A stretch of 64,000 nt of DNA from the NCBI RefSeq assembly GCF_988243305.1, contig NZ_OZ547136.1; one strand, given 5' to 3'. The notes under the pieces are model-generated. The model had not been told where the DNA came from, did no database searches, and was given only the letters and a program-made list of their open reading frames with translations. The translations under genes were made by a program, and so were the position numbers. Below are positions 16-785 of the stretch, one piece after another. Each line of letters opens with the position of its first letter. The stretch's first letter is position 1.

Positions 16-309
16 ATGAAAGTTCAGGCCGTTGGTTTATTCTGGTTTCGCGATGCGATTCAGTATCATGAGCTCAAAAATATTTTTACTGATGCTGATG
101 TGCTCTCCGACAGTTACACCGAGTGGAAACACGACGCTGAAAAATTGATTAAGCGTGTCGAAAGAAGCGGGCAACGAGTTATTAAAGTTGAAGCGGATAC
201 AGCCGAGTTCATCACCTGGTGTACAAGCGAAGGCATTGGAATCAATGCCGAAGGTAGAATGCAGTTCGCATCCTTTAAGGCTTACCAACAACTTCTCAGC
301 GAACGCTAA
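16..309 (+). CDS. Hypothetical prophage protein (97 aa)
   Basis: ORF with strong SD (AAAGGAGG) 7 nt upstream of ATG; hairpin 312-343 downstream; an antisense ORF 37-369 is an alternative. Confidence 0.4.
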   Translation: MKVQAVGLFWFRDAIQYHELKNIFTDADVLSDSYTEWKHDAEKLIKRVERSGQRVIKVEADTAEFITWCTSEGIGINAEGRMQFASFKAYQQLLSER

Positions 310-379
310 TGTGATTGGGGCAATCGAAATGGTTGCCCCATCGTATTTAATAGTTATTTTTTCGCTCATATCACCACCA

Positions 380-652
380 TCACTTCTCGTCCTCTGTGTG
401 CGCTAAGCTTGGATTTGAAATTTTGCGTAACGAATCAGGAATTCCATCTTCAGGGTGAGGATAAAGATCTGGCCTTAAGCCATGTGGCGTGACCTTCCAT
501 GCAACTACTTCACATACGCGTAAAACGAAACGAGCAGGAATTGTGTTTTTTGAAAACCACTGATTCACCGCTTGCGGCGTCACACCAAGATTTCGCGCTA
601 TGGCATTTTGCGCAATTAATGCACGAAGTTTGTCGTAATCATTTCCTTCCAT
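380..652 (-). CDS. Cro-like HTH DNA-binding protein (90 aa)
   Basis: HTH segment (NLGVTPQAVNQWFS); divergent from the CI-like repressor gene. Confidence 0.6.
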   Translation of the reverse strand: MEGNDYDKLRALIAQNAIARNLGVTPQAVNQWFSKNTIPARFVLRVCEVVAWKVTPHGLRPDLYPHPEDGIPDSLRKISNPSLAHTEDEK

Positions 653-785
653 AACAAAGCACCAATATTAACTTTATAAATCAAGAATACATCAAGTTTA
701 AATTAACATGCAAGTTACAAAAGGATCGAATACACTAAAATCAAGTAAAGATTTATCCTTGTAAAGAAACCCACAGGATTTGGTC
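653..785. promoter_or_regulatory. Divergent promoter/operator region between cro-like and cI-like genes
   Basis: AT-rich 130 bp intergenic region with repeated ATCAAG-containing motifs (678-685, 689-696, 738-745). Confidence 0.4.

Follow-up and report, generated by a model that had tools for sequence, protein, structure and literature searches.

The first 1500 nt of the stretch of DNA analyzed here (64,000 nt of contig NZ_OZ547136.1; hereafter the window) comprise the immunity region, cI/operator/cro, of a lambdoid Escherichia coli prophage. Next to cro the same 330 bases carry long open reading frames (ORFs) on both strands: orf97 on the plus strand (16–309), which is convergent with cro, and on the minus strand an ORF encoding 110 aa (37–369, the minus ORF), which follows cro in the same direction. 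We conclude that orf97 is certainly a real protein gene under clear purifying selection, and that the minus ORF is probably the second translated cistron of the cro operon, judging from the way its frame and signals are kept among related loci. The explanation that we favor, with a probability of about 0.62, is that this cassette is read on both strands and that the minus ORF is translated across it, probably as a safeguard against Rho-dependent polarity. A preliminary description of the sequence had pointed out both ORFs, their Shine-Dalgarno (SD) sequences, a hairpin, cro and a 10-nt gap after it, and all of these features are present. It had also held that only one of the two ORFs was likely to be real. 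This was not borne out, as orf97 is a gene and the minus ORF shows signs of selection in its stop avoidance, its SD and start, and its periodicity.

orf97, a conserved protein gene on the plus strand

orf97 extends from the ATG at 16 to the TAA ending at 309 and encodes 97 aa (WP_000867914.1 in the annotation by the Prokaryotic Genome Annotation Pipeline, PGAP). It is preceded on the same strand by the SD sequence AAGGAGG (3–9) with a 6-nt spacer, and both the SD and the 5′ leader are kept across lineages. The protein matches phrog_4753 over residues 1–97 of the 97-position profile (E = 1.8e-49). Homologues of 97 aa with 74–85% identity were found in Klebsiella, Salmonella, Pectobacterium and Serratia, and 97-aa homologues also occur in Phytobacter. 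The AlphaFold2 model, made with a 13-sequence alignment, has a predicted local distance difference test score (pLDDT) of 87 and a strand-helix-helix-strand-helix-helix fold. Between the window and Klebsiella, substitutions at the three codon positions of orf97 number 16/8/53, an excess at third positions, and in the same comparison the translation of the plus frame differs at 22 amino acids and that of the minus frame at 56. It is the phrog_4753 match, the homologues, the pLDDT, the third-position substitutions and the PGAP annotation that lead us to regard orf97 as a real gene. The reverse assignment, with the minus ORF as the real gene and orf97 as its shadow, was rejected, as the substitution pattern, the size of the orf97 family and the fold confidence speak for orf97.

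A profile search of 1.8 billion representatives returned 1118 clusters related to orf97 at E up to 1e-3. They are mostly stand-alone proteins of 95–105 aa, with a few tandem repeats among them, and no Pfam family was found in any of them. orf97 is therefore one member of a large family of ~100-aa proteins, whose sampled enterobacterial members mostly lie beside cro (two have another or an unclear context). Their place beside cro hints at an involvement in lysogeny, in exclusion or in the lysis-lysogeny decision. orf97 itself matched nothing in Pfam, NCBIfam or PADLOC, a sequence-profile search gave no relative in the PDB, and a Foldseek search of the PDB gave a marginal match only. SO3848 of Shewanella oneidensis (PDB 2ox6, a 162-aa structural genomics target) has 11% identity to orf97 and offers no functional lead.

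Fusions of two or three orf97-like domains in tandem, with coiled-coil-like linkers, were seen in P0020 (506 aa), P0025 (206 aa) and P0037 (319 aa), suggesting that the domain works as an oligomer or repeat. Two E. coli viral contigs, L034 and L041 (comparison loci carry our own numbers), have nonsense mutations in orf97, W37 to stop and E36 to stop, respectively, with the minus frame still open; the match is at 6001–6291 in both. In another E. coli locus, L024 (orf97 at 6001–6294), orf97 ends with TAG and is followed by an unrelated 3′ flank with neither the hairpin nor the minus-ORF start. This locus is a natural recombinant in which orf97 is separated from its usual partner.

A candidate orf97 promoter, TTGGTG-17-TATCCT/GATATT, is conserved across lineages. 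It lies ~45–75 nt upstream of the ATG, which is outside the window, and was read in the full prophage (L001) and in other loci. It matches the consensus at 7/12 positions (3/6 and 4/6 in the two elements), and the sigma-70 scan reported no orf97 promoter. Just past the orf97 stop the plus strand carries the GC-rich hairpin TGGGGCAATCGAAATGGTTGCCCCA (316–340), which was flagged by the terminator scan and also encodes residues 10–18 of the minus ORF. Folded as plus-strand RNA it has a predicted energy of −18.3 kcal/mol (z = −4.0 vs shuffles). In three loci of the orf97 group the plus RNA is ~4 kcal/mol more stable than the minus RNA, as the G.U pairs of the stem can form on that strand alone. 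The hairpin is conserved, and its stem has undergone compensatory changes between lineages (GGGGCAA/TTGCCCC, GGGGAGA/TCTCCCC, GGAGCAA/TTGCTCC and CGGGGAG/CTCCCCG), and the U-tract that follows is poor in most lineages. As the plus RNA is the more stable and the U-tract is poor, the hairpin is probably a weak or leaky terminator or a 3′ stabilizer of the orf97 mRNA. We also considered the hairpin as a boxB or as a terminator of the pR transcript and rejected both, as it has no boxB-like loop and no minus-strand U-tract and is weaker on the minus strand. In L070, L072 and L074 (~3297–3340, plus strand) a boxA-like sequence, CGCTCTTGA, is found 10 nt upstream of the hairpin. It resembles a nut (N utilization) site for the orf97 direction and, being missing in the E. 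coli and Klebsiella types, is probably coincidental.

The minus ORF: signs of selection and competing explanations

The minus ORF has its ATG at 369–367 and its stop at 39–37 and lies antisense to orf97. The SD-like sequence GGTGGTGAT (370–378, minus strand) is located inside the 10-nt gap between the cro stop and the ATG. It is one mismatch away from the complement of the extended anti-SD, and its GGTGG core is only 4 nt from the ATG. The arrangement was compared across ~30 loci: 17 of the orf97 group, 12 of a distant subgroup around phage EKP1, and L064. Identity of the plus-strand protein among them is 32–100%. The scan of species-representative genomes yielded 1 locus, tblastn against phage records 4 hits, and single distant proteins 0–1 viral loci; the broad family alignment was too diverse to serve the locus search.

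The codons of the two strands are in register, with plus position 3 opposite minus position 1 and the second positions coinciding. Thus, only TTA, CTA and TCA in orf97 create antisense stops. The chance of an open antisense frame, as estimated from neighboring genes, is 0.07–0.29 per lineage, and 13.6% of the 97-codon windows in these genes are open. The frame is open across the entire orf97 in 13 of the 17 orf97-group lineages. In the other four the only breaks lie near the orf97 5′ end: the E. coli type (three loci) has TTA at codon 8, and EKP1 has TCA at codon 22. Stop-making codons account for 2 of 48 distinct Leu/Ser codon states in the orf97 group vs 9.4 expected (P ~0.002). This count uses distinct states at Leu/Ser columns, which is conservative with respect to shared descent, and takes its expectation from neighboring genes. 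The EKP1 subgroup contains an internal control, since its 12 minus ORFs end inside orf97, at about plus codon 22–32. Inside the minus ORF none of 33 states is TTA, CTA or TCA vs 6.7 expected (P = 6e-4), and outside it, in plus codons 1–32, these codons are frequent (8 states). Codon bias alone as an explanation for their lack was rejected, as orf97 uses other rare codons and the EKP1 subgroup uses these very codons outside the minus ORF. Two orf97 homologues in other contexts have 1 and 4 such codons in the minus frame.

An in-frame minus start is found 60–117 nt past the orf97 stop in nearly all lineages of both groups. In nearly all lineages other than that of the window it is preceded at 5–8 nt by GGAGG, GAGG or AAGGGG, and these signals are provided by at least six unrelated junction sequences. 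Relative to the cro stop, the start ranges from a 4-nt overlap (ATGA, L050) through TGAcATG to 70 nt after it, where cro was called (it was not in L060, L056, L013, L043 and L046). At its other end, in the 13 orf97-group lineages that belong to neither the E. coli nor the EKP1 type, the minus ORF stops between an 8-nt overlap with and a 3-nt gap before the start of the next gene.

The region between the orf97 stop and the minus start lies outside orf97 and shows the periodicity of a coding sequence. There, minus third positions account for 53 of the 91 substitutions seen within groups (P ~1e-6), the synonymous fraction of the minus frame (0.49) is the highest of the six frames, and the minus frame alone is stop-free (19 sequences). 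A shifted plus-strand ORF as the cause of this periodicity was rejected, as that frame is interrupted by stops in 6 cases and its synonymous fraction is lower. The 5′ part of the minus peptide follows the pattern K-[IV]-T-[IV]-x-[YV]-D-G-[AE]-T-I-x-I-[AS]-P-[IV]-[TS]-L across very distant lineages. It is because of the stop avoidance, the conserved SD and start, and the coding periodicity that we do not consider the minus ORF a chance shadow.

In the full prophage (L001) cro is followed on the minus strand by two rha-family genes, replication genes, rusA and Q, all outside the window, and cro therefore heads the early lytic operon. The preliminary description had set this against cro being convergent with a separately expressed gene. 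The two do not compete: cro heads the operon and also converges on the nested orf97.

To arrive at rha, the replication genes and Q, the early transcript from pR must run antisense through the cassette. In the explanation we favor, orf97 would be a conventional, predicted well-folded protein, made from a gene with a strong SD, a weak promoter and a 3′ hairpin that is transcribed toward cro and cI. The minus ORF, opening 10 nt past the cro stop and spanning almost the whole of orf97, would be kept open by selection together with its ribosome-binding site. With this ORF coupled to cro, and in many cases also to the gene after it, ribosomes could follow the RNA polymerase over the C-rich antisense stretch, which would otherwise go untranslated, and their presence would prevent Rho termination and polarity on the essential early genes. 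The minus RNA over orf97 has more C than G (C/G up to 1.8), a rut (Rho utilization)-like composition of the kind preferred by Rho. The minus peptide would matter little, save for some constraint on its first ~20 residues; as ribosome cover and not the peptide would be needed, openness and the ribosome-binding site could be selected with no selection for a fold.

A bolder version, possible in our view but doubtful, is that such an antisense “ribosome bridge” with no folded product is by itself what lets lambdoid phages tolerate a backwards gene in an essential early operon. The bridge would be stop-free and coupled to cro on one side and to cII or rha on the other, and the coupling of transcription and translation would block Rho. 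If this is true, the codon choice of orf97 is shaped by antisense translatability, and the bridge could be a general design rule for antisense morons, as well as a selective reason for antisense ORFs that does not involve protein function.

Among the alternatives, one makes the plus transcript the key product, which we think rather improbable as the central explanation. A distal promoter activated by CII or by another factor, comparable to pRE of lambda, pE of phage 186 or pC1 of phage Fc02, would read through orf97 and the leaky hairpin, antisense to cro and into cI, and this read-through would aid in establishing or maintaining lysogeny and interfere with pR. The position of the candidate promoter agrees with this, as it adjoins the start of a CII-like gene (phrog_101/Phage_CP76) in several lineages. 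So do its weak elements (3/6 and 4/6), which escaped the scan and are typical of activator-dependent promoters, the lack of a good U-tract after the hairpin in most lineages, and an orientation that is the same as that of cI. The promoter pC1 of phage Fc02 behaves likewise (PMC9936078). However, orf97 is under purifying selection as a protein, so the transcript can be only part of the explanation; no binding site for an activator was identified, and the E. coli prophage has Rha-type genes downstream, not a CII of the CP76 type. This alternative is compatible with translation of the minus ORF across the cassette and does not exclude it.

A second alternative is that the minus ORF is a shadow, that is, a frame open by chance and inherited by descent that is neither translated nor selected, so that only orf97 is real. 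We consider this unlikely. The points that weigh against translation across the cassette are gathered here, and several of them speak for a shadow. Homology searches of both ORFs had been put forward as a check, and the outcome was positive for orf97, with its family and homologues, and negative for the minus ORF, for which only antisense translations of the same locus were returned. No version of the minus ORF matched a PHROG, there was no match in Pfam, NCBIfam or PADLOC, it has no independent family, and PGAP does not annotate it. Its product is predicted by AlphaFold2 to be unfolded (pLDDT 42, predicted template modeling score (pTM) 0.31, 15-sequence alignment). Long shadow ORFs arise most readily in the codon-in-register antisense phase, which is open whenever the sense gene has no TTA, CTA or TCA, at the chance frequencies given above. 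Within the overlap, minus residues change twice as fast as orf97 residues, and the substitution pattern gave no detectable constraint on the minus protein there or in its 3′ tail. In the E. coli type of the window and in EKP1 the C-terminal third is missing and the minus ORF stops ~140 nt before the next gene, so that bridging is incomplete in these types. L075 and L076 have no usable minus start beyond the orf97 stop, and in L038, one of 33 E. coli loci, a 1-nt deletion in a T-run throws the 5′ end of the minus ORF out of frame. Part of the minus 5′ region is under constraint from the hairpin, which could add to the conservation seen there. Finally, the argument for translation of the minus ORF comes from comparative sequence analysis, and for the Rho rationale, which we infer, phage antitermination could make ribosome cover unnecessary.

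Set against the shadow are the openness of the frame in ~30 loci over so wide a range of plus-protein identity (32–100%) and the depletion of stop codons in two subgroups (P ~0.002 and 6e-4), one of them with an internal control. To these are added the at least six unrelated junctions that each give an SD and an in-frame start, the third-position periodicity outside orf97, and the minus-ORF stops that adjoin the start of the next gene.

The third alternative, that both ORFs are true protein genes and that the minus ORF encodes a functional early protein such as an exclusion or regulatory factor, seems to us quite unlikely. The cassette would in that case be a functional module on two strands and not a gene with a translated spacer. 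This alternative would account for the excess of synonymous change and the conserved peptide pattern in the 5′ 20–40 codons, and it has a precedent in olg1 and gene 10 of Fc02, where both strands are expressed beside ner and exclusion activity was found (PMC9936078). Against it stands the difference in predicted fold, with a pLDDT of 42 and a pTM of 0.31 (15 sequences) for the minus product vs a pLDDT of 87 for orf97 (13 sequences). The C-terminal third is dispensable, since the E. coli and EKP1 types lack it, and the tail of the minus ORF upstream of orf97 has no codon periodicity (2/7/7). Moreover, much of the conserved peptide (D-G-A...A-P) simply translates the GGGG/CCCC arms of the hairpin and co-varies with the compensatory stem changes.

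The cassette in other phages and in relation to known systems

The cI-cro module of the window is shared with PhiR49_2 (95.6% identity) and with Stx2 phages (~80%), and the match ends at the cro 3′ end. In PhiR49_2 the cro 3′ end overlaps the start of roi/rha, whereas the prophage of the window has ~470 extra bases at this place. The alignment confirmed that the cassette is absent from PhiR49_2 and from Stx2_14040 and that the flanks match. As the flanking genes adjoin in PhiR49_2 and the cassette is missing there, we regard the orf97 cassette as an insertion. The conserved unit extends from ~85 nt upstream of the orf97 ATG to ~70 nt past its stop. In nearly all of the ~30 readable loci it adjoins the 3′ end of a cro-type gene and is transcribed toward it. 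L052 and L055 are exceptions, and L051 is too short to tell. The Cro families next to the cassette differ (YdaS, P22_Cro, lambda Cro and plain HTH_3), and the next early gene after it varies as well (CII-like CP76/phrog_101, Rha, phrog_4439 or a DnaD-like loader).

In L055 (2999–3352; Klebsiella phage Kp4865-4, an unannotated record) a distant orf97 relative is found on the cI side of the switch. It is oriented backwards relative to the surrounding operon, and most of it is covered by an antisense ORF of 93 aa. In L002 a perfect 12-bp palindrome, GTGACATGTCAC (5363–5374), covers the cro stop (TGA) and the start of the minus ORF (ATG). The same palindrome recurs in L007, L043, L054, L060 and L068, among phages whose cro genes are unrelated, and may mark a recombination joint or serve as a binding site. 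L054 is phage EKP1 (OM284015), for which the recorded host is Elizabethkingia. Its immunity/replication region (cI-S24, cro, DUF4222 and toprim primase) is of the same type as in the enterobacterial prophages compared. In the EKP1 annotation the minus ORF is entered as UKL15118.1, and the orf97 homologue is missing.

Considered as a whole, the locus is a standard lambdoid immunity region with a moron-like insertion. Morons, a concept of Juhala and Hendrix, are reportedly extra promoter-gene-terminator units inserted between conserved genes of lambdoid phages. Like them, the cassette can be there or not while the genes on its two sides stay the same; it brings along an SD and a 3′ hairpin of its own and travels between unrelated immunity types. 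Unlike them, it is directed against an essential operon at one and the same junction, and its opposite strand is kept as an ORF, neither of which is part of the moron concept. Lambdoid phage morons are mentioned in PMC2629481.

The closest described architecture is, by analogy, that of olg1/olg2 and gene 10 in Fc02, a B3-like phage of Pseudomonas. There, a distal promoter transcribes olg1 and olg2 toward the repressor, with gene 10 and ner on the other strand; strand-specific RNA sequencing showed both strands to be expressed, in lysogeny vs lytic growth, and both overlapping products have demonstrated exclusion activity (PMC9936078). In architecture, to which the comparison is confined, the two are alike in that repressor-strand genes lie distal to ner, the cro analogue, and antisense to the gene after ner. 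They differ in that Fc02 is a transposable phage of another host, with no sequence relationship expected, and that the minus product described here looks unstructured.

Antisense overlapping genes have been described in E. coli O157:H7 and Pseudomonas aeruginosa, mainly by ribosome profiling (Ribo-seq) of single strains (PMC9927249, PMC5960689, PMC8850804). As in those cases, we observe a long ORF that runs antisense within an annotated gene and has a ribosome-binding site of its own and signs of selection. Unlike them, the case of the cro cassette is built on a comparison of many lineages and comes with an operon-level reason for translation. The cro-side cassette was not found in these three papers, and a literature search on the accession and on the gene at the cro-side position gave no description of the cassette or the family.

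Long antisense ORFs of bacteria are usually written off as shadows, with a single strand retained by annotation pipelines; PGAP retained the plus strand here, and the annotators of EKP1 the minus strand. The locus offers a comparative case, spread over many mosaic phages, for reading both strands, together with a concrete and testable reason, namely the need to keep translation going where an essential operon is interrupted by a gene in the opposite direction. Stops can be placed in the minus ORF by single changes that leave the orf97 protein unaltered, which provides a clean experimental handle.

Operators, promoters and genes of the immunity region

A near-identical stretch (99.4%) is carried by 39 complete E. 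coli genomes, and partial matches were found in 172 of 5426. In E. coli strain S4 (NZ_CP107140, region 585–588 kb) the near-identical stretch lies inside a lambdoid prophage adjoining yecN/cmoA.

The cro-like gene (380–652, minus strand; TGA stop at 382–380), the first of the early lytic operon, encodes a small helix-turn-helix (HTH) protein of 90 aa of the YdaS/Cro type. It matches Pfam YdaS_toxin with 47.5 bits (cut-off 30), P22_Cro below threshold, and phrog_35, and its homologues in PhiR49_2 and the Stx2 phages are annotated as Cro. Divergent from it, across a 133-bp intergenic region, is the gene for a cI-type repressor (786–1475, plus strand; 229 aa, annotated by PGAP), which matches phrog_4 and has an HTH_3 domain (33.3 bits) and a Peptidase_S24 self-cleavage domain (62.4 bits). 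These two genes confirm the immunity region named in the preliminary description. One boxA pattern search over 1–800, the only nut/boxA search made, gave no nutR or boxA near cro, and Rfam at a permissive threshold gave nothing credible.

The divergent operator/promoter region (OR, 653–785) contains ATCAAG on the plus strand at 680–685, 691–696 and 740–745. Three copies in 133 bp compare with ~0.09 expected from the 44 copies in the whole window, both strands counted (Poisson P(≥3) ~1e-4). All three are invariant in four phages, in which the cI/cro DNA is 80–95% identical and the neighboring bases vary. The earlier suggestion that these motifs are repressor half-sites is strengthened by this local enrichment, by the invariance and by the palindromes of the left operator (OL) described below, and we consider ATCAAG a credible candidate for an operator half-site. 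The candidate 17-bp operators in OR are 691–707 and 740–756, which match the OL palindrome at 14/17 and 13/17 positions, and, as a weaker candidate, 680–696. The right halves of these sites are weak, and the offset within one pair of them is just 11 bp. A tentative pR on the minus strand, assigned by eye, has a −10 TATAAA at 678–673 and a −35 TTAAAC at 701–696. The repeat finder and the sigma-70 scan reported nothing in 640–800, neither pR nor pRM, which indicates that the ATCAAG motif is short for the former and that pR and pRM are below the threshold of the latter.

On the other side of cI, the promoter scan detected a pL-like promoter, TTGACA-17-TAATAT (1539–1567, plus strand; 10/12), which is kept in the four phages. 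It is accompanied by two palindromic 17-bp sites with an ATCAAG half-site, ATCAATTTTTTCTTGAC (1527–1543) and ATCAATTATAACTTGAT (1574–1590), which share words with OR. CI, and probably Cro, are predicted to bind these 17-bp sites, with ATCAAG as the strong half-site at three places in OR and two at the pL-like promoter.

The immunity regions of lambda and P22 resemble the present one in having an S24-type HTH repressor, a small divergent Cro, half-sites (candidate ones in the present region) in OR and again at pL, and an operon leading to replication genes and Q. They are unlike it in that Cro here is of the YdaS type and the candidate operators combine one strong and one weak half-site and include the pair offset by 11 bp. 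Where lambda has tR1/nutR and pRE, the prophage of the window has the convergent cassette.

Right after the cI stop lies a canonical intrinsic terminator, AACGGGCTTTGCCCGTT (1487–1503), followed by TTTTTTT up to 1510, which places it between cI and the pL-like promoter. The first gene after that promoter (1621–2166, plus strand) encodes a 181-aa HTH_3 protein that matches the PHROG “CII-like regulator” family phrog_4836 (E = 2e-78). This CII-like gene is thus found on the cI side of the switch and not after cro.

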